Positions 1 through 12,844 of a stretch of DNA of 64,000 nucleotides are shown here, piece by piece. The stretch is from a bacterium. Lineage in GTDB: Bacteria; Desulfobacterota; Binatia; UBA12015. Location: contig JAUIFY010000001.1 in NCBI GenBank assembly GCA_030430245.1, positions 12,878 through 76,877 on the forward strand. Direction: 5' to 3'. Under the pieces are notes generated by a model that had not been told where the DNA came from, ran no database searches, and saw nothing but the letters and a program-made list of their open reading frames with translations. A program made the position numbers and the translations under genes. The stretch's first letter is position 1, and each line of letters begins with the position of its first letter.

Positions 1-1491
1 CGTTCCGATGTTCTCGTAGTGGAGCGTGTACGTGATCCGTTGACCGGCGCTCGTGATGCCGTGTCCGAACACGTTCACGGGGGGATCGGCCTCCTTGTAG
101 TTCGGGTCGACCGGCATGCCCATCCACGTGAGCGCGCCCGTCTGCTCCTGGCTCACCTGGCACTCGGGCGGAAGGCTGCTCAGCTGAGCGAAGGCATCCT
201 GGACGCAATCGGTCGCCGTCTGCAGCCACTCCGCCGTGTTGGACGGGGGCGGGTCGCAGCAGACCTGGTCCATGCTGAGGCTCACTCCGCCGCAGGCGGT
301 CGGGAACGAGCAGGGCCGCGACTCGGAGTCGGGAAGCTCGTCGGGGGCACCCTCGCGCGTGATGAGGTTGCCGCACGAATCGAGAACGCCCACGCCCGGT
401 AGATGTACGAGCCCGCCCCAGCAGATCGGACTCGGGGGCGCCGGGGGGGTGGGCGGGCGACACCGTGGATGGGAGCCGCACTCGGAGTCGCTGCAGTCCG
501 GTCGCCCGTCGCAATCGTCGTCGTAGGCGTTCGTGCAGATCTCGCCAAGGCCCGCACGCGACGCGCTGTCGAAGCGGACGCTCGACGTCGCGACGTTGTT
601 CGCGCCGTCGAAATCGAGTGCCGTCCCCGTCGCGACCGCGACGTTCGTGAGAACGGAGTTGCAGTAGGTGCCGTCACCGAACGGAGGCGGCAGGATCTCG
701 ACGGTCGGCGTGTGGCTGCCGCCCAGGGGCAGGTCCGCGAGGGCCATTCCGACGACGGGATGAGCCGGGCCCGCGTTCAACACCGTGGTCGCGACGCTCG
801 ACGAAGCGAGCGCCGAGAGCTGCGGCAGGAAGTCGACCACCTGAACGCCGGTCGCGGTGTCGGGGCCGAGGTTGGAGACGCCGAGGTCGAAGCGGGTGGT
901 CGCGAGGTCGGTGTACGGGTCGAGGGCGTTCTTGACCGAGGCCAAGTCGGCCTCGTCGGTCGGGGGCGGCGTGATGGAGGCGACGAAGTGCATGTCGCTC
1001 CACCAGGCAGCGAAGCACTGGCCGTTCAGGACGGCCGAGTCGATCGCGCCGATGTTCGCGGCGCCCAGCAGCGGACTGAAGCCGCCGAACGGGAACTGGA
1101 AGCTCTCGGTGTTCGCGCTTCCGTTGAACTCGGCCTGACCGGCGCACTCGGCCCCGAGGTAGCCGAAGCCCACCGCACCGACGGGTGGGCTGAAGTCGAT
1201 CGTCACACCGTCGGGCCAGAAGCTCGCGAGGCGGGGAGCGCCGTCGGTCAACCCTCCCGCGGCGGTCGTCGTGAACGTGATGGTCACGCCGTTGCGCACG
1301 ATCGTGTGGGTCATCTGTCCCGGGACCACCCCGAAGCTCGCGTCGAACGGCACGACCGTCGCGCCGGCGAGCTCGGGAGCCGTGGGACTGAACAGGAGCG
1401 TCGCCTCGGCCGGGAGCGGGCTCCCGGCCGTGACCATGAGGATGCAGAGTGCGCTCCAGCCCAAGAGAATGCTTCTGCCACTCGTCTTCAT
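1..1491 (-). CDS. Secreted cell-surface repeat protein, 5'-partial at window edge (signal peptide, DUF11-like beta repeat, Cys/Asp-rich patch)
   Basis: Hand translation of the minus frame that is absent from the ORF track because it runs off the edge. ATG at 1491..1489 gives [30 protein letters not shown] (signal peptide), then 497 codons with no stop down to nt 1. The window-edge segment reads [15 protein letters not shown] (DUF11-like). Contains [27 protein letters not shown]. Confidence 0.6.
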
Positions 1492-1783
1492 CGTCGTTCC
1501 TCCGCTGTCGTCCCGCGGTTCCCGCGGGTGCTGCGACGACGTTCGGGCAGGTCGCCGCGCGGGACCATCCTCGGAAATGGGGAGGGGGCGACGAGGGCCC
1601 GCCAGGCCTGCGCTCGCCGCGGAGGCCTCCCCAGAATTGGGGAGGCCTCTCTCGGGTCGGCGGGGTCGCGGCGGGAGGGGCGGCACTGGAAGTGGAGCCG
1701 ACTCTCGGCGTATGGGCAGGGCGAGATCGCGGACGCCGTCCGCGACCGATCGTTTCTACGAGGAACGCAGAGGAGAAGATCGC

Positions 1784-2256: not shown

Positions 2257-3015
2257 GTGAGGGTGCCGTCGGGCTCCCCTCAGGCCGCAAAGGCCGTCGG
2301 AGTTCCGCGGCCGGGTCAGATCTTCGATCCGGTCGCGCGAGCTCTCGACGTGATCGGCGATCGCTGGACCCTCGTTCTCGTGCGCCAGCTGATCGGAGGC
2401 GCGAAGGGGTTCACCGAGCTCCGGCAACGCACGGGAATCGCCCCCCGGGTGCTCTCGGGGCGCCTGCGCCAGTTGACGACCGACGGGTTCGTCGAGCAGG
2501 TCGAGAACGGCGCGCGCTCCGTCTACGCGGTGACGGAGCGCGGGCGCTCGCTCGAGCCCCTGATCTCCTCTCTCGCTCGCTGGTGGATTCACCACGGAAT
2601 CCAGGAGCTGGCGATCGACGTCGACCGTTTCAATGCGACGTCTCCGCAATCGATTCTGGAATCCCTCCCGTTCCTCCTCCGCGAGGAGCGCGCGATGGGT
2701 GAGAACGTCGTCTTCGAGATTCGCCTTCAGGGTGAAGGAGGCGGCGTGTGGTCCGTGGCGATTCGCGACGGACGCTGTGAGGTCGCGCGCGGTTTCGCCG
2801 AGCGCGCGGACGTTCGGTACACCGCCGATGCGAGCGCATGGTGCGGTGTTGCGCTGGGCCTGCTCGACGCACGCGACGTGGTCAAGAAGGGCCTCATGAC
2901 GAAGGACGGGGGCTCTCAGGCCCTCGACCACTACTTCCACCAGCCCACGGCTCTCAGCGGCGGTGGCGCGGGGCGTGAAAAGAAGGCGCGCTCCGAAAGG
3001 AGGAAAGCACCATGA
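2257..3015 (+). CDS. HxlR-family winged-helix transcriptional regulator fused to a C-terminal SCP2-like (sterol carrier / lipid-binding) domain
   Basis: GTG start. VIGDRWTLVLVRQL...FTEL matches the HxlR (DUF24) helix. C-terminal VVFEIRLQGEGGGVWSVAIRDGRCEVARGFAERADVRYTADASAWCGVALGLLDARDVVKKGLMTKDGGSQAL fits an SCP2 fold. Stop overlaps the next gene's ATG (ATGA). Confidence 0.7.
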   Translation: MRVPSGSPQAAKAVGVPRPGQIFDPVARALDVIGDRWTLVLVRQLIGGAKGFTELRQRTGIAPRVLSGRLRQLTTDGFVEQVENGARSVYAVTERGRSLEPLISSLARWWIHHGIQELAIDVDRFNATSPQSILESLPFLLREERAMGENVVFEIRLQGEGGGVWSVAIRDGRCEVARGFAERADVRYTADASAWCGVALGLLDARDVVKKGLMTKDGGSQALDHYFHQPTALSGGGAGREKKARSERRKAP

Positions 3016-4109
3016 TCTCGTTCGGGTTGACCGAAGAGCAAGATGCGATTCGCGGAGCGATTCGCGAGTTCGCGCAAGGAGTGGTTCGACCCCTCGCGCG
3101 CGATTGTGACGAGCAGTCGAAGCTTCCCGACGACTTCCTGCAACAGGTGTGGGAGCTCGGTCTCACGACGACGCAGGTGCCGGAAGCGTTCGGCGGCATG
3201 GGCGCGGATCGGTCGCAGACGACGACGGCGATCGCGCTCGAGGAGCTCGCGTACGGCGATGCCGGGCTCGCGGTGGCCGCTCTCGCTCCGTCGGGGTTCG
3301 TGAACGCGCTCCTGGATCACGGCACCGAGGAGCAGAAGCAGCGCCTGCTTCCCGGGCTCTGCGGCACCGAGTTCGCGTGTGGCACGTTGGCCGTCGTCGA
3401 GCCCGGCGCCATGGCCGACGCGTCGAGGCCGAAGACGACGGCGACGGCGAAGAGCGGGGGCTACGTCCTGAAGGGGACGAAGCGCTTCGTCCCGTTCGGG
3501 GATCGCGCGACGCACTTCCTGGTGGTTGCGGCGCTCGACAGCGAGATCGCCGCCTTCATCGTCGCCCGCGACGCGGCCGGACTGACGATCGGCGCCGAGG
3601 CCGAGAAGAATCTCGGCCTGCGGGCCGTGCCCGTGCACACGCTCGAGCTCGACGGCGTCGAGGTGTCCGACGGCGATCGTCTGGGTGGCTCGGCCGGGGG
3701 CAACGTCCGCGCTCTGCTCGACACCAGCCGCGCCGCACTCGCCTCGTGTCTGGTGGGCGTCGCGCGGGCGGCGGTGGAGTACTGTGTCCCGTACGCGAAA
3801 GAGCGCGTGGCGTTCGGCGAGGAGATCGCGAAGAAGCAGGCGATCGCCTTCATGCTCGCCGAGTCGCACACCGAGGTCGAGGCGATGCGCTGGCTCGTAT
3901 GGCAGGCCGCCTCGAAGCTGGAGAAGGGGCTGGACGCGACGAAGGCCAGCTACCAGGCGTGGAGCTATGCCGGCGAGAAGGGCCTCTGGGTCGCCGACAA
4001 CGGCATTCAGGTGCTGGGTGGTCACGGCTTCACCCGTGAGCACCCGGTCGAGCTGTGGTTCCGCAGTGCGCGCACGCTCGGCGTGCTCGAAGGCACCGTG
4101 TCCATCTAA
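3012..4109 (+). CDS. Acyl-CoA dehydrogenase family protein (first subunit of a tandem ACAD pair)
   Basis: MISFGLTEEQDAIRGAIREFAQ...GGMGADRSQTTTAIALEELAYGDAG...VLGGHGFTREHPVELWFRSARTLGVLEGT is the ACAD N-terminal, middle and C-terminal domain pattern. 365 aa. Confidence 0.8.
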   Translation: MISFGLTEEQDAIRGAIREFAQGVVRPLARDCDEQSKLPDDFLQQVWELGLTTTQVPEAFGGMGADRSQTTTAIALEELAYGDAGLAVAALAPSGFVNALLDHGTEEQKQRLLPGLCGTEFACGTLAVVEPGAMADASRPKTTATAKSGGYVLKGTKRFVPFGDRATHFLVVAALDSEIAAFIVARDAAGLTIGAEAEKNLGLRAVPVHTLELDGVEVSDGDRLGGSAGGNVRALLDTSRAALASCLVGVARAAVEYCVPYAKERVAFGEEIAKKQAIAFMLAESHTEVEAMRWLVWQAASKLEKGLDATKASYQAWSYAGEKGLWVADNGIQVLGGHGFTREHPVELWFRSARTLGVLEGTVSI

Positions 4110-4122
4110 GGGAGACCATCTG

Positions 4123-5307
4123 ATGATCAGTTTCGAATTGAGCGAGTACGACCGCGCGAAGCTCGACGCCATCAAGGAAGAGGGGCTCATCTGCCGCAAG
4201 TACGCGCGGTACTACGACGAGCACGAGGAGACCGAGATTCCGCCGGACGAGCTGCCGGAGGCGAAGGACTTCGCGCCGACGCCGAATCTGGCCTCGAGGC
4301 AGAGCGAGGAGGACTCGGGCCCGTCGGTGATGGCGATGCTCTACACCGTCTACCGGTGCTGGGGCGACTACGCCGTGAAGCTGCGTCAGCCGAAGGCGGG
4401 CGGACTGGGCAACGCCGCGCTGATGGCGGCAGGCACCGACGAGCAGAAGCAGCGATGGATCAACAACTTTCTCGCGATGGCGATCACCGAGCCGGGCTGC
4501 GGCTCCGATCCGTCGCGCGTCACGGCCTCGGCGGTTCTCGACGAAGAGACGAACGAGTGGATCCTGAACGGAGAGAAGATCTTCGTGACGGGAGGTGTTC
4601 GCGCCGACGGCGTCGTGATGTGGGCGACGGTCGACAAGTCGGCGGGCCGCGCCGGAATCAAGTCGTTCCTGGTGATGAAGGGGACGCCCGGCTTCGAGGT
4701 GGCGAAGAAGGAGAAGAAGCTCGGCATCCGCGGTGAGGATACCGCGACGTACGTCTTCTCCGACTGCCGGATTCCGCGTGACCAGCTCCTCGGGGGCAAC
4801 GAAGAGGTTCAGAAGAAGGGCTCGGGCGGCTTCCGGGGCGTGATGAAGACCTTCAACATGACGCGCCCCGCAGTGGCGGCGTTCGGAATCGGCATCTCCG
4901 AGGCGGCGCTGGACTTCACGCGCGAAGAGCTCGAGAAGGCCGGGGTGGATCTGGACTATGGCGCGGGGATGGGCAATCGGTCCGCCGTCGCCGAGAAGTT
5001 CATGAAGCTCGAGGCGCTGCACGAGGCGAGCAAGCTCACGGTTCTCCGTGCCGCCTGGCTCGCGGACCAGGGCCAGCCGAACAACATGGAGTCCTCCGTG
5101 TGCAAGGCGCACGCGGGGTCGGCCGTGCGGGAGATCACGCAGGGGTGCATCGACATCCTGGGGCCGCTCGGCGTGTCGCGCGACAACCTCGTCGAGAAAT
5201 GGATGCGCGATTGCCGCATCATCGACATCTACGAGGGGACGGGGCAGATTCAGCGACTCATCATCGCGCGCGGTCTGTTCGACTACACCCGCGACGACCT
5301 GAACTGA
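4123..5307 (+). CDS. Acyl-CoA dehydrogenase family protein (second subunit of a tandem ACAD pair)
   Basis: The internal ATG (MISFELSEYDRAKLDAIKEEG...) of track ORF 3685..5307 has an aagggagacc RBS. AITEPGCGSDPSRV, YEGTGQIQRLIIAR are ACAD signatures. 394 aa. Confidence 0.8.
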   Translation: MISFELSEYDRAKLDAIKEEGLICRKYARYYDEHEETEIPPDELPEAKDFAPTPNLASRQSEEDSGPSVMAMLYTVYRCWGDYAVKLRQPKAGGLGNAALMAAGTDEQKQRWINNFLAMAITEPGCGSDPSRVTASAVLDEETNEWILNGEKIFVTGGVRADGVVMWATVDKSAGRAGIKSFLVMKGTPGFEVAKKEKKLGIRGEDTATYVFSDCRIPRDQLLGGNEEVQKKGSGGFRGVMKTFNMTRPAVAAFGIGISEAALDFTREELEKAGVDLDYGAGMGNRSAVAEKFMKLEALHEASKLTVLRAAWLADQGQPNNMESSVCKAHAGSAVREITQGCIDILGPLGVSRDNLVEKWMRDCRIIDIYEGTGQIQRLIIARGLFDYTRDDLN

Positions 5308-5501: not shown

Positions 5502-6902
5502 ATGCTCTTCAACTCCCTTCAGTTCGTCGGGTTTCTGCTCGTCGTCCTCACGGTTCACTTCTGGGTCATCCCGGCGTCGCAGGAGCGGGCGCGGCGGCTC
5601 TTTCTCCTGCTCGCGAGCTACGTCTTCTACGGCTCGTGGAATCCGCCGTTCGTCCTCCTCCTCCTCTACTCGACGGTTCTCGACTACGCCGTCGCCCTCC
5701 GGATGGCGCGCACCGAGTCGAGGGCGGGGCGCCGTGGTCTCCTGGGGCTCAGCTTGCTGGGCAACCTCGGCGTTCTCGCCTTCTTCAAGTACGGCAACTT
5801 CCTCGCGGAGACCTACCTGACGCTCGTCTCGCTCGGCCCGGCCCAGCAGAGTGGGCCGGTCGTGGACGTCATCCTCCCCGTCGGGATCTCGTTCTACACG
5901 TTCCAGAGCCTCAGCTACTCGATGGACGTTTACCGGGGGCGCCTCGAGCCGGCGAAGAGCTTCTGGGACCTGGCGCTCTACGTTTCGTTCTTCCCGCAGC
6001 TGGTGGCCGGGCCGATCGTGCGTGCGCGGGAGTTCCTTCCCCAGCTCGAACGCGAGCGCGTCGTTCGGGGCGCGGACGTCGAGTCGAGCCTGGCTCGCAT
6101 CGCGGGCGGGTTGATCAAGAAGGTCGTGTTCGCCGACACCCTCGCGCTCTACGTGGACCAGGTGTGGGCGGACCCGAGCGCGCACGGCGGGCCGGGTTTG
6201 CTTCTCGCGGCGTATGCGTTCGCCTATCAGATCTACTTCGACTTCTCGGGGTACTCGGACATGGCGATCGGGCTCGCACGGCTGTTCGGATTCGAGCTGC
6301 CGGAGAACTTCCTGCGGCCGTACCTCTCGTCGAGTCCGCGGGAGTTCTGGCGCCGCTGGCACGTGACCCTGTCTTCGTGGCTGCGCGACTATCTCTACAT
6401 CTCGCTCGGCGGAAATCGCGGCTCGGAGGCGAGGACGCGGCTGAACCTCCTGATCACCATGTTGCTGGGCGGCCTCTGGCACGGGGCGGGCTGGGCGTTC
6501 GTCGTCTGGGGCGGGTTCCACGGGGGCTTGCTCGTCGCGCAGCGTTGGGCGACCCCGCGCTTTCCGGCGCTCGGCGCGCTGCCGGGTTGGGTTCGAGTCG
6601 GCATCACGTTCCATCTCGTGGTCGTCGGCTGGATTTTCTTCCGGTCGCCGGATCTCTCGACGGCCGGGCAGTTCTTCGCCGGGCTGGTCCGGCCGGGCTT
6701 CGAGCCGAATCCGGACGTGATTCGGGCTCTCGCGGTGCTCTCCGTGGCCGCCCTCGCGCACGTGGTCGGAGTGCCCCAACAATGGCAGCGCGGCCTGGCC
6801 CGTCGGGGTCCGTGGGTCCAGGGCGTCGCGTACGCGTGCGTGGCGGTCCTGGTCTACTTGTTCTCGCCGGCGACGAACCAGTTCATCTACTTCCAGTTCT
6901 GA
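5502..6902 (+). CDS. MBOAT-family membrane-bound O-acyltransferase (AlgI/PatA/DltB-like)
   Basis: MLFNSLQFVGFLLVV... multi-TM protein. FYTFQSLSYSMDVYRG and WRRWHVTLSSWLRDYLYISLGGNRG...WHG carry the MBOAT conserved His region. Confidence 0.8.
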   Translation: MLFNSLQFVGFLLVVLTVHFWVIPASQERARRLFLLLASYVFYGSWNPPFVLLLLYSTVLDYAVALRMARTESRAGRRGLLGLSLLGNLGVLAFFKYGNFLAETYLTLVSLGPAQQSGPVVDVILPVGISFYTFQSLSYSMDVYRGRLEPAKSFWDLALYVSFFPQLVAGPIVRAREFLPQLERERVVRGADVESSLARIAGGLIKKVVFADTLALYVDQVWADPSAHGGPGLLLAAYAFAYQIYFDFSGYSDMAIGLARLFGFELPENFLRPYLSSSPREFWRRWHVTLSSWLRDYLYISLGGNRGSEARTRLNLLITMLLGGLWHGAGWAFVVWGGFHGGLLVAQRWATPRFPALGALPGWVRVGITFHLVVVGWIFFRSPDLSTAGQFFAGLVRPGFEPNPDVIRALAVLSVAALAHVVGVPQQWQRGLARRGPWVQGVAYACVAVLVYLFSPATNQFIYFQF

Positions 6903-6914
6903 GAAGATCCTCTC

Positions 6915-7946
6915 GTGAGTCGACTCGTCACCATCGCCCTCGTTTTCGGCGCGTGTCTCGCGGCGTTCGTCGCCGTGGTTCTGTTGCGGGCCGGAGGCGA
7001 GGTCATGGAGGCGGGTGTTTTCCTGCGGCCGACGCGTGTCGAGCTCGGTGTCACCATGGAGCAGCTCGAGGAGAAGGACGCGCGGGTCGTCTGGCTCGGG
7101 GACTCCACGGTGCTCGATTCGATCGACATCCCATCCTACGCCGACATCGTCGCGGAGCGGATCGCGAAGTCGGGAGACGAGATGCCGCCCCACGGCGTGG
7201 TCGCGATGGTGGGCCTGGATTTCTACCACTACTACTGCATGCTGGGGCGAATCCTCGAGAGAAACCCCGAGGTGGTGGTGCTCGTGGCCCATCTGCGGAT
7301 GTTCGTCGATGGAGCACGCGCGTTCATGGATCTCTGCAGCTCCCTTCCACCGAGCGAGCTTCCCCGGGCGATGCTCCTTCCGTTTCGGGAGCGCGACGTC
7401 GGGCCTCTCGATCTGCTCGGATACCAGCTGCTGCGGCTGCCGGGCGCGGAGACGAGCTTCCTGGCGTACGAAGGGGCGCAGCGACTCTTCCAGGACAGGG
7501 ACCCGACGGGGCTGCTCGCCAAGACGCCGACCTACTTCGAGCGTCTCGGCATGGGCGGCCGGAAGCCGGCGTTGGAGTACCTGCGTTCGTACGCGCTCGA
7601 CCTGGATCGCGAGGATCCCGTGGTTCGAATGATGGGGGCCACCGTCGACATGGCGCGGCGTCACGGGGCCGAGGTGCTCGTCGTCGCGAGCCCGATTCCC
7701 TACGAGAAGCTGGAGGCGCGCGACTGGTATCGGCCGCAGACGATCGACGTCCTTCGCCGCGTCGTCGAGGAGAACGGAGGACACTTCTTCGACGGTCATC
7801 GGGTCCTCCAGAAGCGGCACTACCGCGACGAGTCGGGACACTACACGACCGAGGGCGCGGAGATCCTGGCGGAGGCTCTCGAGCCGACGCTGCGAGAGGT
7901 CCTGGAGGATGGTGCTTCGGCCGGACGTGCTACGGGGGCACCATGA
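6915..7946 (+). CDS. Membrane-anchored SGNH/GDSL-fold protein, AlgJ/AlgX/PatB/DltD-type partner of the MBOAT
   Basis: N-terminal TM segment MSRLVTIALVFGACLAAFVAVVLL. VVWLGDSTV is SGNH block I (GDS). DESGHYTTEGAEILA is block V (DxxH). Lies 12 nt after the MBOAT gene. Confidence 0.65.
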   Translation: MSRLVTIALVFGACLAAFVAVVLLRAGGEVMEAGVFLRPTRVELGVTMEQLEEKDARVVWLGDSTVLDSIDIPSYADIVAERIAKSGDEMPPHGVVAMVGLDFYHYYCMLGRILERNPEVVVLVAHLRMFVDGARAFMDLCSSLPPSELPRAMLLPFRERDVGPLDLLGYQLLRLPGAETSFLAYEGAQRLFQDRDPTGLLAKTPTYFERLGMGGRKPALEYLRSYALDLDREDPVVRMMGATVDMARRHGAEVLVVASPIPYEKLEARDWYRPQTIDVLRRVVEENGGHFFDGHRVLQKRHYRDESGHYTTEGAEILAEALEPTLREVLEDGASAGRATGAP

Positions 7947-9874
7947 GCGAGGGAATCCGTCCCCAGGGCGAGCCGTTCGACGACGACGACGAGACCGTCG
8001 CGGAGGCGCTCGAGAGCGCGAACATCCCCGCGCTCCTGATGAGTCTCGTCCATCTCACGGGTGAGACCGAAGTCCTCCGGGGACCGATCCGTCCTACGAA
8101 GGTCGTCGGGCGGATGAGTCCCGGGATGCCGAAGAGCGAGAAGGCGGAAGTGCGAGCGATGCTGCTCGAGGCGCTGCGCGACTATCGGGATCGGGGCTTC
8201 ACCCTCCCGCCGCCTCCTTCGAGTGAAACCATCCACCGCATGATGAGCTTCGCGACGGGGGACGACGTTCCCGCGGAATACGTGCCGATGATGCGCGAGG
8301 AGATGGCGCTCGACGGATGCGACGCGCGGGAGGTGTCGTGGGACGACGTGCCGCCGGAGGCACGCGAGAAGGTTCGTGTGCTGGTGATCGGTGCGGGGAT
8401 GTCGGGACTACTCGCTGCGATCCGACTCGAGGAGCATGGTGTTCCGTACGACGTCGTCGAGAAGAACGACGCGGTCGGAGGGACCTGGCTCGAGAATTCG
8501 TACCCGGGGTGCCGTGTCGACGTCGCGAATCACTTCTACTGCTACTCGTTCGAGCCGAACCCCGATTGGACCGAGTACTTCGCCCGGCAGCCGGAGCTGC
8601 GGGCGTACTTCGAGGGCTGTGCGACGAAGTACGGGGTGAGGCCGCACATTCGATTCCGGACGGAGGTCGTTTCCGCCGCGTGGGACGAGGCGCGGTCCGT
8701 CTGGGACGTGCGCCTGCGGGGTCCCGATGGTCGCGAGGAGGAGCGGGCCTACCACGTGGTCATCAGCGGCGTCGGGCAGCTCAACCGCCCTCGGCTTCCG
8801 GAGATCGAGGGCCGCGAGACCTTCGCCGGTCCGTGGTTCCACTCGGCGCGTTGGGACCATGAGGTGCCCCTCGAGGGAAAGCGCGTCGGCGTGATCGGCA
8901 CGGGGGCGAGCGCGCTCCAGCTCGTCCCGGAAGTGGCGAAGCGCGCCGAGCGGCTCCACGTGTTTCAGCGCTCGGGCGCGTGGATGAGCCCGAATCCGAG
9001 CTACCACCGCAAGGTTCCGGCCGGAAAGCGGTGGCTTCTGCGCCACGTCCCCTACTACGCGCGGTGGTACCGCTTTCTTCTCTTCTGGCCGGCTTCCGAC
9101 GGACTCCTGCCGTCGCTGATCGTCGATCCCGCGTGGCCCCACCAGCATCGCTCCGTGAACGAGCAGAACGACCAGGTGCGCATCGCGTTCACCGAGTACA
9201 TGAAGCACCAGATCGGCGGCGATCCGGAGCTTCTCGCGAAGGTCGTCCCGACCTATCCGCCGTTCGTGAAGCGGATGCTGCAGGACAACGGGAGCTGGCT
9301 GGGAGCACTCACCCAGGATCACGTGGAGCTCGTCACCGACCCCATCGCGCGCATCACGCCTCGAGGGGTCGAGCTCGCCGGGGGGCGTTTGGTGGACCTC
9401 GACGTGATCGTCTTCGCGACCGGCTTCCTCGCGAACAAGTTCCTCTGGCCGATGAAGATCGTCGGCCGCAACGGTGCGACGCTGCGCGAAGTCTGGGGGG
9501 AGGATCCCTTCGCGTACCTGGGCATCACCGTTCCGCGGTTTCCGAACCTCTTCTGCCTCTACGGCCCGGGAACGAACCTGGCGCACGCCGGCAGCATCAT
9601 CTTCCACTCGGAGTGTCAGGTCCGGTACGTCATGGGGTGCCTGCGGGCCCTTCTGCGGGACGGCCACGCCTCGATGGAGTGCCGCGAGGACGTCGCGGCC
9701 GCATACGAGAAGCGACGGCTCGAGGCCACGGAGCGCACGGTGTGGGCGCATCGGGGAACGCGGAGCTGGTACAAGAACGACGCGGGGCGCGTGACCACCG
9801 TCTCGCCCTGGCGACTCGTGGACTACTGGGGCTGGACGCGCGAGCCGGACCTGGGCGACTTCGAGCTGCGGTAG
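7943..9874 (+). CDS. Baeyer-Villiger-type flavin monooxygenase with ~130-aa N-terminal extension
   Basis: Internal start MSEGIRPQG... of track ORF 5636..9874, with ATGA overlap onto the upstream stop. VLVIGAGMSGLLAAIRL is the FAD GxGxxG motif. FAGPWFHSARWD matches the BVMO fingerprint FxGxxxHxxxW[P/D]. GKRVGVIGTGASALQ is the NADPH site. Confidence 0.8.
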   Translation: MSEGIRPQGEPFDDDDETVAEALESANIPALLMSLVHLTGETEVLRGPIRPTKVVGRMSPGMPKSEKAEVRAMLLEALRDYRDRGFTLPPPPSSETIHRMMSFATGDDVPAEYVPMMREEMALDGCDAREVSWDDVPPEAREKVRVLVIGAGMSGLLAAIRLEEHGVPYDVVEKNDAVGGTWLENSYPGCRVDVANHFYCYSFEPNPDWTEYFARQPELRAYFEGCATKYGVRPHIRFRTEVVSAAWDEARSVWDVRLRGPDGREEERAYHVVISGVGQLNRPRLPEIEGRETFAGPWFHSARWDHEVPLEGKRVGVIGTGASALQLVPEVAKRAERLHVFQRSGAWMSPNPSYHRKVPAGKRWLLRHVPYYARWYRFLLFWPASDGLLPSLIVDPAWPHQHRSVNEQNDQVRIAFTEYMKHQIGGDPELLAKVVPTYPPFVKRMLQDNGSWLGALTQDHVELVTDPIARITPRGVELAGGRLVDLDVIVFATGFLANKFLWPMKIVGRNGATLREVWGEDPFAYLGITVPRFPNLFCLYGPGTNLAHAGSIIFHSECQVRYVMGCLRALLRDGHASMECREDVAAAYEKRRLEATERTVWAHRGTRSWYKNDAGRVTTVSPWRLVDYWGWTREPDLGDFELR

Positions 9875-9904
9875 GGTCTCGCACCGGGTCGACGGCACGA
9901 CGAC

Positions 9905-12844
9905 ATGTCCGATTGGAAAGCGCTGCTCGCGGAAGTGAAGGGCGAGTGCCCCTCCGGGCTCTGGTCGCAGGGAGTCGAGCTCGCGCGCGGAAATGCCGTC
10001 GCCGGCGACTCGCGCGATGGCGCGGAGTGGACGTTTCGCGTTCGTCTGCCGGGCGACGACGTCGCGCCGACCGTGATCCTCTACCCGGAGGACGCCGAAT
10101 GGGATTGCGACTGCGAGGGACCGTGCGATCCGTGTGAGCACGTCGCCGCGTGCGCCATCGCCGCGGCGCAGGATGCGGAGTCGCTCTTTCGGGGAGCGGG
10201 GCGTGTCGGTTCTCTCCGCTACGTGCTGCGCCGGACGGACGCCGGTGTGGTGGTCGATCGCTTTCTCGTGCTCGAGGAGGAAGAGCCGCGTCGCTTGGAA
10301 GAGTCGATCTACGATCTTCTCGAGCGCGAGGGAGCCGATCTGAACTTCGAGCCGAGTCGGGAGGATCTGGATCTCGACGTTCTCCTGGCGCGCCGGGACG
10401 AGCCGATCTCGTTCGAGCGTGCAAAGACGGTGTTGTCGGGGTTGGTCGGCGTGAAGGATCTGCGCCTCGACGGGCGGGAGGTGCGGGCCTCGGCCCAGGC
10501 GTCGTATCCCCGCGCCCGAATCGTCGATGGAACGGGAGGCGGAGTCGAGCTCGTTCTGGAGACGGATCCCGAGGTGGACGAGGTGGTCTCTCCGGGGATC
10601 GCGCGCCTCGGCGACCGTCTTCATCCGTTCGGTGCGGGGGCTCGCTTCGGGAAGGCCTGGGAGCGGCTTCCGTTTCGACGGGCGTTCGCGCGCGACGAGG
10701 TCGGTGAGCTCGTCGGCAAGGTCGTGCCGGAGCTCGAGCGCCACATCCGGGTCGACGTGCAGACCGATCGGCTCCCGGACCGGCAGAAGCGCGGGGAGCG
10801 CCTCGCGCCGTGGATCCAGTTCGAGATCGACACCGTTCCCGAGGGGACGGACGTTCTCGCCCGGATCGTCTACGGCGATCCTCCCGTCGCCCGACTGGAG
10901 GGCGACGAGCTGATCCATCTCCGAGGGGCGGTCCCGACGCGCGACCGGCCGGCCGAGAGGTCTCTCGCCCTGCGGCTGCGCGACGAGCTGAATCTCGCGT
11001 TGGAGCGGCGTGTTCGCTTCGACGCCGGCGATGCGGCGCGACTGCTCTCGGCGCTTTCTTCGTTCGACGACGGGCGGCCCGCCGCGAAGCGAAAGGAGCT
11101 CGAAGACAGGCCGGAGCTCGCGCCACGCCTCCTCTCGGATCCGTCGGGCGGCTCGGGGCCGGAGCTCGTGTTCGATCCGGTGGGAGCCGCGGGCACCGAT
11201 CTGGCATCGGTCGGCGCGGAAGCGGTTCTCGCGGCCTGGCGGCAGGGCCAGAGCCTCGTCCCGCTCGCCGGCGGCGGCTTCGCGAGGGTTCCGGAGGGCT
11301 GGCTGGAGCGGCACGGGCACCTCGTGGCGGACCTTCTCGCGGCGCGCGAGCAGAACGAGGGGCGGATTCCGACGGCCGCGCTTCCGGTCCTGGCCGAGCT
11401 GTGCGAGGCCATGGAGGCGCCGCCCCCCTTCGAGGTGGAGCGCCTGCGCGGCCTTCTCGACGGTGCGGGGTCGGCCGATGCGGTGTCCCTCCCGGCCGGC
11501 TTCCGCGGCGATCTACGGGCGTACCAGCAGGAGGGCGTCGGGTGGCTCACGCGTCTTCGCGACGCGGGGTTGGGTGCGATCCTGGCGGACGACATGGGTC
11601 TCGGGAAGACGGTGCAGGCCCTCTGCGCGATTCGCGGTCGAACGCTGGTCGTCTGTCCGCGGAGCGTCATTCACAACTGGAGCCGAGAGACCGCACGCTT
11701 TCGCCCGGATCTCTCGGTCGCCCTCTATCACGGTCCGCGGCGCGCGTTGACGGACGCGGACGTGACGCTCACGACCTATGCCACGATGCGGAACGACGTC
11801 GACGTGCTGGCCGACGTCGAGTGGGATGCGGTCGTTCTCGACGAGGCGCAGGCGATCAAGAATCCCGACAGCCAGGTCGCCCGCGCGACGTACCGACTCC
11901 GCGCCGGCTTTCGCCTCTCGCTCTCCGGCACGCCCGTGGAGAATCGGCTGGACGAGCTGTGGAGCCAGATGCATTTCGCGAACCGAGGCCTCCTCGGAGG
12001 CCGTCGCGACTTCGCGGAGCGCTACGAGAAGCCGATCCTCGACGGGAGCGCGGAAGTGACCGATCGGTTGCAGCGGCGGCTGCGCCCCTTCCTGCTGCGT
12101 CGCCTCAAGAGAGAGGTGGCGCGAGACCTGCCGCCGCGGACCGAAGCGCTTCTGTATTGCGAGCTCGACGACGAGGAGCGCGCGCTCTACGACGGGGTGC
12201 GTGCGGCGTCACGGGCGGACGTCGTGAAGCAGCTCGGGGAGGGGACGAACGTCATCGCCGCGCTCGAAGCGCTGCTCCGACTACGGCAGGCCGCGTGTCA
12301 TCGCGGGCTCCTTCCGGGGCGCTCGGCGGAGTCGTCGTCGAAGGTGGATGCCCTGTGCGACGCTCTCGACGACGCGGTCGCCGATGGGCACAAGGCGCTC
12401 GTGTTCTCGCAGTGGACGGGAATGCTCGACCTCGTCGAGCCTCATCTCGAACGGCACGAGATCCGCTTCGCGCGGATCGACGGGTCGACGAGGGATCGTG
12501 CCGCCGTCGTGGACGCCTTCCAGGACGAAGCCGGGCCTCCGGTGCTTCTCATCTCCCTGACCGCGGGGGGCACGGGTCTGAACCTGACGGCGGCCGATCA
12601 CGTCTTCCTGCTCGACCCCTGGTGGAACCCGGCGGTCGAAGAGCAGGCGGCGGATCGCGCGCACCGCATCGGCCAGGATCGTCCGGTGATGATCTATCGA
12701 CTGGTGGCCAAGGACACCGTCGAGGAGCGTGTCCTCGATCTCCAGGCGCGGAAGCGGGAGATCGCCGAGAGCGCCCTCTCGGGCGCCGCCGTCGGTCGGG
12801 GCGGCGTCACGCGTGAGGAGATCCTGGCGCTCCTGGCCGACTGA
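9905..12844 (+). CDS. SNF2-family DNA-dependent ATPase/helicase with N-terminal SWIM zinc finger
   Basis: SWIM motif [19 protein letters not shown]2 motifs [52 protein letters not shown] and helicase C-terminal [23 protein letters not shown]. 979 aa. Confidence 0.85.

Follow-up and report, generated by a model that had tools for sequence, protein, structure and literature searches.

The stretch of DNA considered here, hereafter the window, comprises 64,000 nucleotides (nt) of the bacterial contig JAUIFY010000001.1 (positions 12,878 to 76,877 of the forward strand). It carries a gene trio in which a transcriptional regulator, built from an HxlR-type winged helix-turn-helix (wHTH) and a domain of the SCP2 fold, is followed by two adjacent acyl-coenzyme A (acyl-CoA) dehydrogenase (ACAD) genes. 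Every related locus of sufficient length shows the order regulator, ACAD1, ACAD2 (83 loci, searched by tblastn with the three window proteins), a conserved candidate operator overlaps the promoter of the unit, and the two enzymes show complementary losses of residues that contact the cofactor. The model that we favour, and that we regard as fairly probable as a whole, is that of an autoregulated operon with a lipid-released HxlR-SCP2 repressor and a heteromeric alpha/beta ACAD. Its parts, a wHTH-SCP2 regulator and a predicted alpha/beta ACAD, are of known kinds, of which the locus is an as yet uncharacterised variant; nothing in it points to a new principle.

Domain organisation of the regulator

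The regulator and its two domains are located as follows.

2263-3015, + strand: regulator gene, HxlR-type wHTH plus SCP2 fold; 250 amino acids (aa) with GTG 2263 as start; the alternative start GTG 2257 would give 252 aa
2350-2586, + strand: HxlR winged helix-turn-helix domain (PF01638), residues 32-110 in the 252-aa numbering
2638-2940, + strand: SCP2-fold putative ligand-binding domain, approximately residues 128-228, assigned from Pfam, transitive homology and predicted fold

A preliminary description of this DNA, made from the sequence, had proposed that an HxlR winged helix is fused to an SCP2-like fold, and both halves of this proposal are borne out. The N-terminal domain matches the Pfam HxlR family (PF01638) over residues 32-110 with 59.2 bits, against a cut-off of 20.8, and the same family is matched by all 38 members of the regulator clade. 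Among proteins of solved structure, the wHTH is related in sequence to PA1607 (2f2e; E 2.8e-15), and also to HypR/YybR, YtcD, YodB and HxlR. Likewise, a Foldseek comparison of the N-domain returned PA1607, HypR, YtcD and YodB, with template modelling scores (TMt) of 0.54-0.80. In the AlphaFold2 model of the regulator, the block-mean predicted local distance difference test (pLDDT) value is 82-93 over residues 41-100, corresponding to the wHTH core, and for most of the C-domain it is 75-89.

For the C-terminal domain, the search against SCP2 (PF02036) advised in the preliminary description gave a divided answer. The window regulator itself scores 20.7 bits (E 5e-4, residues 150-214), under the cut-off of 21.3, whereas among 38 close relatives, 32 reach E<=1e-3 on PF02036, the best of them 1.8e-7. 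Weak Pfam matches to Alkyl_sulf_C and SCP2_2 fall on the same stretch of the protein. Moreover, when the C-domain alone (residues 115-235) was used as a phmmer query against a database of 1.8 billion representatives, 270 relatives were retrieved, including stand-alone proteins of 106-140 aa that score 1e-15 to 1e-20 on PF02036, and the profile of the regulator family reaches the SCP-2L sequence of MFE-2 with an E of about 0.012. Structure prediction, which had also been advised, agrees with these relationships. Specifically, Foldseek matches the predicted C-domain to solved SCP2 folds with a probability of 1.00 and E values of 2e-7 to 2e-4; the folds matched are the C-domains of the alkylsulfatases SdsA1, Pisa1 and YjcS, AF1534 and human SCP2, together with MFE-2 SCP-2L, mosquito SCP2-like proteins and UbiJ-SCP2. 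The C-terminal domain is thereby confirmed as an SCP2 fold, the borderline Pfam score being settled by family members, transitive homology and the predicted fold.

In thiol-sensing members of the HxlR family, the sensing residue is an N-terminal cysteine located before the first helix, and it is through this cysteine that the characterised HxlR/DUF24 regulators perceive their signal. The Cys present at this point in PA1607 ('ASCPVA') is an Asp in the window regulator ('IFDPVA'), as well as in every aligned clade member covering the position (37 of 38, the remaining one being N-terminally truncated). HxlR-SCP2 fusions from other phyla keep the Cys ('QYCPVA'). Since the N-terminal HxlR cysteine is replaced by Asp across the clade, sequence comparison makes the direct ligand sensing put forward in the preliminary description plausible for this regulator, in preference to thiol sensing. 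Two further cysteines, C174 and C196 (nt 2776-2778 and 2842-2844), lie in the SCP2 domain and are invariant in the 38 clade members. C174 is also found in stand-alone SCP2 proteins (P0170, P0179 and P0196), and for this reason its candidacy as a clade-specific redox switch was dropped; C196, within the motif 'WCG', is clade-specific.

A conserved candidate operator over the promoter

The region upstream of the regulator contains the following elements.

2217-2237, no strand: operator site 1, palindrome TTAGTATCTCTTGAATACTAA (TTAGTAT-N7-ATACTAA), from inverted repeat and conservation
2219-2235, no strand: core of operator site 1, AGTATCTCTTGAATACT, with 1 mismatch to the consensus AGTATC-N5-GATACT
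2227-2232, + strand: putative -35 hexamer TTGAAT, within operator site 1, deduced from the consensus of related loci
2242-2258, no strand: degenerate second operator-like site GTTGTCATGTAGATAGT, with 4/12 mismatches and only the right half recognisable; a weak assignment
2251-2256, + strand: putative -10 hexamer TAGATA, inside the degenerate second site, assigned comparatively

The palindrome to which the preliminary description had drawn attention is located exactly where it was placed, at 2217-2237. Within the window taken alone it is statistically unremarkable; as a candidate operator it is strongly validated by conservation among related loci. In particular, when 250-nt upstream regions were anchored on the conserved IFDP motif, the 17-mer AGTATC-N5-GATACT (at most two mismatches) was found in 65 of 67 related regions, 76-150 nt before the anchor, and a control search gave 6 matches in 124.5 kb on both strands. 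No further site with at most one mismatch was found in 610 kb of related loci, and the 64-kb window holds site 1 alone. In several relatives, a second operator site lies 22-23 nt downstream of the first.

The conserved operator overlaps the promoter of the operon. In 51 loci, the hexamer TAGATA is formed by the right half-site with the T that precedes it, and in most loci a TTGACA-like hexamer lies upstream of it at a spacing of 17 nt (18 loci have an exact TTGACA, all but one at this distance). In loci with a promoter-proximal operator downstream of the first site (n=13 in the promoter table, with both sites detected at no more than three mismatches in 8), the hexamer found 17 nt upstream of TAGATA is TTGAAT. 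The window belongs to this two-site subtype and shows TTGAAT, an 18-nt spacer and TAGATA, followed 6 nt further on by GTG 2263. As the conserved operator lies over the operon's own promoter, the arrangement suggests that the operon is probably autorepressed. A literature search for a published HxlR-family operator (QsrR/YodB) with which the palindrome might be compared returned only the MarR-type MhqR operator.

The position of the start codon also deserves mention. The first in-frame start codon after TAGATA is found at 8 nt in 37 loci and at 9 nt in 10 loci, and because of this short distance in 47 loci the regulator mRNA is probably leaderless. In the window, GTG 2263 is the likely start of the regulator rather than GTG 2257, since the latter abuts the -10 hexamer and the closest homolog (P0001) is 250 aa long.

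Operon structure and translation signals

Three signals connect the genes of the trio at the level of translation.

3012-3015, + strand: ATGA stop/start overlap of regulator and ACAD1, with TGA 3013-3015 over ATG 3012-3014
2998-3003, + strand: Shine-Dalgarno (SD) sequence AGGAGG of ACAD1, inside the C-terminal tail of the regulator, where it encodes the 'RR' of ...SERRKAP
4110-4115, + strand: SD sequence GGGAGA of ACAD2, preceding ATG 4123

According to the preliminary description, the regulator stop overlaps the first of two adjacent ACAD genes, and the sensor is co-translated with the enzymes that it probably controls. The overlap is seen as described, and the tie between regulator and ACAD pair holds in every related locus with enough DNA. 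Co-translation stands only in part, as the 4-nt overlap is found in 55 of 81 loci but gaps of 3-111 nt occur in the others, and an SD core precedes the ACAD1 start in 80 of 80 loci. With an overlap restricted to a part of the loci and an ACAD1 always provided with its own SD, translational coupling of regulator and ACAD1 appears possible and clearly optional. In addition, because the overlap is variable, every ACAD1 has its own SD and the regulator is apparently leaderless, expression of the regulator is probably not stoichiometrically tied to that of the enzymes. The gap between ACAD1 and ACAD2 measures 9-121 nt across the related loci, with an SD-like core before the ACAD2 start in 70 of 72. 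Both ACADs start with Met-Ile (ATGATC), so that 'ATGA' is intrinsic to the ACAD start. A terminator scan found no + strand terminator after ACAD2.

The regulator ends in a variable basic tail (2990-3011 in the window), which in many relatives finishes with R-R-(K). The codons concerned double as the AGGAGG Shine-Dalgarno of ACAD1, so that the composition of the tail follows from an RNA signal. A peculiar case is offered by P0084 (343 aa; alignment columns 296-377), from a metagenomic contig, in which the open reading frame (ORF) of the regulator runs on into the N-terminus of ACAD1 ('...KIVISFGPSEEQEIIRD'). The most probable causes of this read-through are loss of the stop at the overlap, a frameshift or an error of assembly.

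Two dehydrogenases with complementary cofactor contacts

The two enzyme genes are the following.

3012-4109, + strand: ACAD1, 365 aa, predicted beta-type subunit, without the cis contacts to the isoalloxazine of flavin adenine dinucleotide (FAD) and without the last C-terminal helix; trans motifs for the adenosine diphosphate (ADP) part of FAD kept
4123-5307, + strand: ACAD2, 394 aa, predicted alpha-type catalytic subunit; TEP, GSD, FxT, RD and YEGT kept, trans contacts lost, N-terminal domain divergent

Both proteins are clear ACADs by Pfam and are 26% identical to each other, and both resemble homotetrameric enzymes of the short- and medium-chain acyl-CoA dehydrogenase (SCAD/MCAD) type, with E values of 1e-51 to 1e-55. 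In structures of the MCAD type, a cis set of residues contacts the isoalloxazine ring within the subunit, and a trans set touches the FAD of the neighbouring subunit at its ADP part. When 75 ACAD1 and 67 ACAD2 orthologs were aligned with two canonical ACADs, the two sets were seen to be divided between the proteins. ACAD2 keeps, in 67/67 orthologs, the Thr of TEP, the Gly-Ser of GSD, the Thr of F-x-T, the Asp of RD and Y-E-G-T with the catalytic Glu; it has E, D, A or V for the Arg of ER-x-FG, E or D for the Gln of Q-x-x-GG-x-G, and P or A for the second Gly of the latter motif. ACAD1, for its part, keeps the Arg of ER-x-FG and the Gln and Gly-Gly of Q-x-x-GG-x-G in 75/75 orthologs. At its three cis positions it carries V, I, L or A; a non-Gly residue followed by F or A (Ser in only 11 of 75); and P or V. 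Moreover, ACAD1 ends directly after the EGT motif in all orthologs.

The losses of FAD contacts are thus reciprocal, with the trans set only in ACAD1 and the cis set plus the catalytic Glu in ACAD2, and for this reason the comparison predicts that the two proteins are complementary subunits of one obligate alpha/beta enzyme, in place of the simple tandem pair of the preliminary description. In other words, neither ACAD would be able to complete its own FAD site as a homomer, and together they would form one complete site per heterodimer. The NCBIfam cut-offs of known heteromeric subunits are missed by the two ACADs (IpdE2, 52.8 versus 450 bits; PimD, 60.6 versus 652.7; PimC, 32.1 versus 623.85). 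Since both proteins are closer to the homotetrameric SCAD/MCAD types than to ChsE/IpdE/PimCD, the alpha/beta split at this locus is likely an independent instance, or else a very old and divergent one. Homologs retrieved with ACAD1 as query were all unnamed metagenomic ACADs, at least 58% identical to it, and led to no characterised enzyme.

The N-terminal domain of ACAD2 (residues 1-95; 4123-4407) barely matches the Pfam ACAD N-domain, over residues 97-121 only, and contains an acidic, Pro-rich stretch (EHEETEIPPDELPEAKDFAPTPN...). This divergence may correspond to a remodelled substrate entrance or to a partner-binding surface.

Proposed mechanism

In the model outlined at the beginning, a dimer of the regulator would bind the 17-bp palindrome AGTATC-N5-GATACT and, once bound, would occlude its own promoter, covering the -10 region in most relatives and the -35 region in the window, with repression as the outcome. 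Binding of a lipophilic molecule in the SCP2 domain would then lead to release of the DNA and induction of the operon, the likeliest ligand being an acyl-CoA or fatty acid handled by the downstream ACAD enzyme. The leaderless first cistron would keep the level of the regulator low, the SD-led ACAD cistrons would be efficiently translated, and the ATGA overlap might add an optional coupling. As regards the enzyme, ACAD2 (alpha) would contribute the FAD isoalloxazine site, the catalytic glutamate and the substrate pocket, and ACAD1 (beta), having lost its own flavin site, would clamp the ADP part of its partner's FAD, giving one FAD per alpha-beta dimer. SCP2 domains fused to enzymes of beta-oxidation are thought to hand over their ligand or to serve in docking. 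By analogy, a possibility is that the SCP2 domain of the regulator might also pass its ligand to the ACAD complex, or dock on it; if true, such a hand-over would tie regulation to substrate delivery.

Alternative explanations

Several points weigh against this model. The comparison shows the domain architecture and fold, the synteny, the conservation of the operator with its promoter overlap, and the complementarity of residues, whereas binding of the palindrome by this protein, repression, the class of ligand, derepression, leaderless transcription and heteromeric assembly are inferred. The AlphaFold2 model of the regulator is moderate overall (mean pLDDT 68, predicted template modelling score 0.43), with low confidence in the linker 113-128, and the SCP2 score of the window regulator falls 0.6 bits under the curated Pfam threshold. 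At the operator, no promoter was called by a strict sigma-70 scan, and the promoter assignment there rests on conservation across loci; in the window, the -35 and -10 hexamers are weaker (TTGAAT, 18-nt spacer) and the second operator is degenerate. In the case of the enzyme, ACAD1 keeps a Glu or Asp at the catalytic position in 75/75 orthologs, a retention in which it differs from the mycobacterial beta subunits, and the ACAD motifs have been mapped to what we take to be their counterparts in known MCAD structures, that is, T136, S142, T168, R281, Q349 and G353.

With regard to the signal, we consider it unlikely that the regulator senses thiol redox state, electrophiles or quinones in the manner of YodB, QsrR and HypR, employing C174 and C196, with the SCP2 domain as a scaffold or quinone pocket. 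Solved relatives of the regulator do include HypR/YybR, YodB and QsrR, both cysteines are invariant in the 38 clade members, a Zn-dependent alcohol dehydrogenase (Zn-ADH)/quinone-oxidoreductase-like gene follows ACAD2 in approximately 22 loci, and the SCP2 domain of UbiJ, a protein of ubiquinone synthesis, is among the structural matches. However, the N-terminal sensing Cys is Asp throughout the clade and is kept by the HxlR-SCP2 fusions that are not linked to ACADs, while C174, shared with stand-alone SCP2 proteins, looks structural. Furthermore, the invariably linked genes are ACADs and not enzymes of quinone or thiol detoxification, and neither the window nor most of the loci have the oxidoreductase neighbour. 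As for the direction of control, in most relatives the promoter is near-consensus (TTGACA, 17 nt, TAGATA) and has its -10 and spacer covered by the candidate operator, a classic repressor position in which RNA polymerase and regulator could not be accommodated at once, and the promoter looks strong enough without an activator, given the exact TTGACA in 18 loci. This arrangement makes it very unlikely that the protein is a ligand-dependent activator like HxlR and EspN, with the palindrome as its activator site, even if the HxlR entry in the Protein Data Bank is titled HTH-type transcriptional activator and the imperfect hexamers of the window (TTGAAT, 18-nt spacer, TAGATA) could mean dependence on an activator. 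A further point on that side, which counts at the same time against repression, is that EspN, the sole studied wHTH-SCP2 regulator, activates whiB6 (PMC11005418).

It also seems improbable that the two ACADs are independent homotetramers with different substrates, their residue differences reflecting divergence or a non-catalytic paralog. The reciprocal losses are strictly conserved across 67-75 orthologous pairs, the ACAD1 and ACAD2 genes are never found apart, and ACAD1 is truncated straight after EGT in all orthologs; a homomeric ACAD1 would be without isoalloxazine contacts, and a homomeric ACAD2 without the trans Arg, Gln and Gly for the neighbouring FAD. These observations stand against the facts that each ACAD is full-length and three-domain by Pfam, that the structures closest to each are homotetramers of the SCAD/MCAD type, that both stay below the NCBIfam cut-offs set for heteromeric subunits already known, and that ACAD1 retains Glu/Asp at the catalytic position. 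A lipid-released repressor preceding an alpha/beta ACAD is the reading that we retain in what follows.

Distribution of the fusion and of the operon

The preliminary description had called the fusion uncommon, which was an overstatement in view of its relatives, of the genomes that carry it, of fusions in other phyla and of the published EspN. The regulator has 1414 database relatives, and the best 120 of the 1414 are 64-97% identical to it and 221-343 aa long, nearly all between 233 and 295 aa; the closest homolog, P0001, is 97% identical. Named hosts among these best 120 are Myxococcota or 'Deltaproteobacteria' metagenome-assembled genomes (MAGs). In a scan of one genome per species, the regulator was found in 160 genomes; the 80 listed among them are without exception assemblies derived from metagenomes, most of them assigned to Myxococcota and nearly all bearing the label MAG. 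In general, the regulator-ACAD1-ACAD2 unit is conserved in uncultured Myxococcota.

Many operon-carrying MAGs (L007, L013, L018, L026 and others) bear the label Spirochaetales or Spirochaetaceae, and single ones are labelled Opitutales, Ignavibacteria, Planctomycetota or Terriglobales. The regulators of these oddly labelled MAGs are 57-72% identical to that of the window, a range equal to that of the Myxococcota-labelled loci, and because of this correspondence the identities suggest mis-binned or mislabelled Myxococcota contigs rather than a wide phyletic spread.

A second group of HxlR-SCP2 proteins, around 30% identical to the window regulator (27-35%), is found in Actinomycetota and other phyla, where the Joint Genome Institute annotation reads 'HxlR family transcriptional regulator/putative sterol carrier protein'. 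None of the three second-group genes examined has ACAD neighbours. A literature search pairing HxlR with SCP2 found nothing relevant, and EspN emerged from a broader one. In short, the HxlR/wHTH-SCP2 architecture is recurrent and had already been noticed, and this clade is set apart by having lost the Cys and by its constant association with ACADs.

Genomic context

Directly upstream of the operator lies the gene of an MscL large-conductance mechanosensitive channel (1769-2185, + strand; Pfam 1.6e-48), which does not occupy the equivalent position in the related loci L001-L003. Downstream of the trio, on the + strand, follow an MBOAT O-acyltransferase gene (5502-6902), a weak SGNH/GDSL-like ORF (6915-7946; E 1e-3) and a gene for a flavin monooxygenase of the FMO/Baeyer-Villiger-like kind (7943-9874). 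The cluster at 5502-9874 may be a separate unit modifying lipids or polysaccharides. The long ORF at 1-1755 (- strand) runs off the start of the window, contains a DUF11 repeat domain (E 2e-8) and probably derives from a large surface protein.

The window neighbours of the trio are not conserved beside it in other loci. The Zn-ADH-like gene already mentioned, which is on the same strand as ACAD2, recurs in about a quarter of the loci (in L001 at 9114-10112), is absent from the window and could encode an accessory enoyl or quinone reductase. Other recurring neighbours are upstream transporter and acetyltransferase genes, which are not universal either; the clustering of neighbours by six-frame ORFs was blurred by spurious ORFs of high GC content. 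As no neighbour is universal or conserved, the context gives no clue to the substrate.

Relation to known systems

SCP2 domains are known as lipid carriers, and their role on DNA-binding proteins is hardly explored. In this respect the clade offers a cleaner system than EspN, having a single conserved operator, a near-consensus promoter, a fixed enzyme pair and hundreds of variants; as the enzyme pair probably acts on the ligand or on a close relative of it, the question of sensing by wHTH-SCP2 proteins becomes directly testable. The reciprocal loss of FAD contacts extends the idea of alpha2beta2 ACADs beyond the steroid-degrading Actinobacteria and Proteobacteria, and provides a sequence rule for spotting alpha/beta ACAD pairs, based on cis T/S/T versus trans R/Q/G contacts. 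In practical terms the system matters only modestly, its host organisms being uncultured. Somewhat against the odds, and only tentatively, we entertain the stronger claim that this regulator would be the first HxlR-family member demonstrated to sense a lipid or acyl-CoA directly, by an SCP2 pocket, having given up the Cys switch, and that its heteromeric ACAD arose independently of the mycobacterial steroid-degrading ChsE/IpdE.

EspN (MMAR_1626/Rv1725c) is a wHTH-SCP2 transcription factor that activates whiB6/ESX-1 genes in Mycobacterium marinum, and its SCP2 domain has been proposed as a lipid sensor (PMC11005418). Compared by described architecture, EspN and the window regulator both carry an N-terminal wHTH and a C-terminal SCP2 domain in one polypeptide. 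Unlike EspN, an activator with no ACAD linkage, the window regulator is part of a fixed ACAD operon, and the position of its candidate operator implies repression. The Actinomycetota HxlR-SCP2 fusions, with about 30% identity, differ in their retained N-terminal Cys and in their unrelated neighbours.

With the HxlR/DUF24 regulators PA1607, HypR/YybR, YodB, QsrR and HxlR, the protein shares a clear DNA-binding domain, and its candidate operator is a short palindrome. The solved HxlR relatives that were matched are single-domain proteins of 107-168 aa, whereas the window regulator adds an SCP2 domain of approximately 100 aa and has Asp in place of the Cys. To the SCP2/SCP-2L domains of MFE-2, SCPx and the alkylsulfatases SdsA1 and Pisa1 it is linked by predicted fold, weak sequence similarity and association with fatty-acyl metabolism; for instance, P0154 joins SCP2 domains to ChsH2-type domains. 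In contrast to enzyme-fused SCP2 domains, that of the window is fused to a DNA-binding domain, and its lipid binding is putative.

As to the dehydrogenases, the published account of ChsE4-ChsE5 and ChsE1-ChsE2 places isoalloxazine binding and the catalytic Glu in the alpha subunit, and assigns binding of the ADP-ribose of FAD to the beta subunit (PMC11153573). Adjacent, co-transcribed genes and a split FAD-contact pattern liken the window pair to ChsE4-ChsE5/FadE26-27, ChsE1-ChsE2/FadE28-29, IpdE1-IpdE2 and PimC/PimD. Unlike in ChsE, IpdE and PimCD, whose sequence families are not matched, an acidic residue is kept by ACAD1 at the catalytic position. No steroid-pathway genes are found near the trio.

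Finally, FadR (of the GntR or TetR type), PsrA and KstR/KstR2 are promoter-bound repressors of fatty-acyl catabolism that are released by acyl-CoA or lipid. The logic proposed for the window regulator would, by analogy, be the same as that of FadR, PsrA and KstR, whereas this regulator is related to them neither in protein family nor in ligand domain, the lipid being putatively perceived here by an SCP2 domain mounted on an HxlR scaffold.

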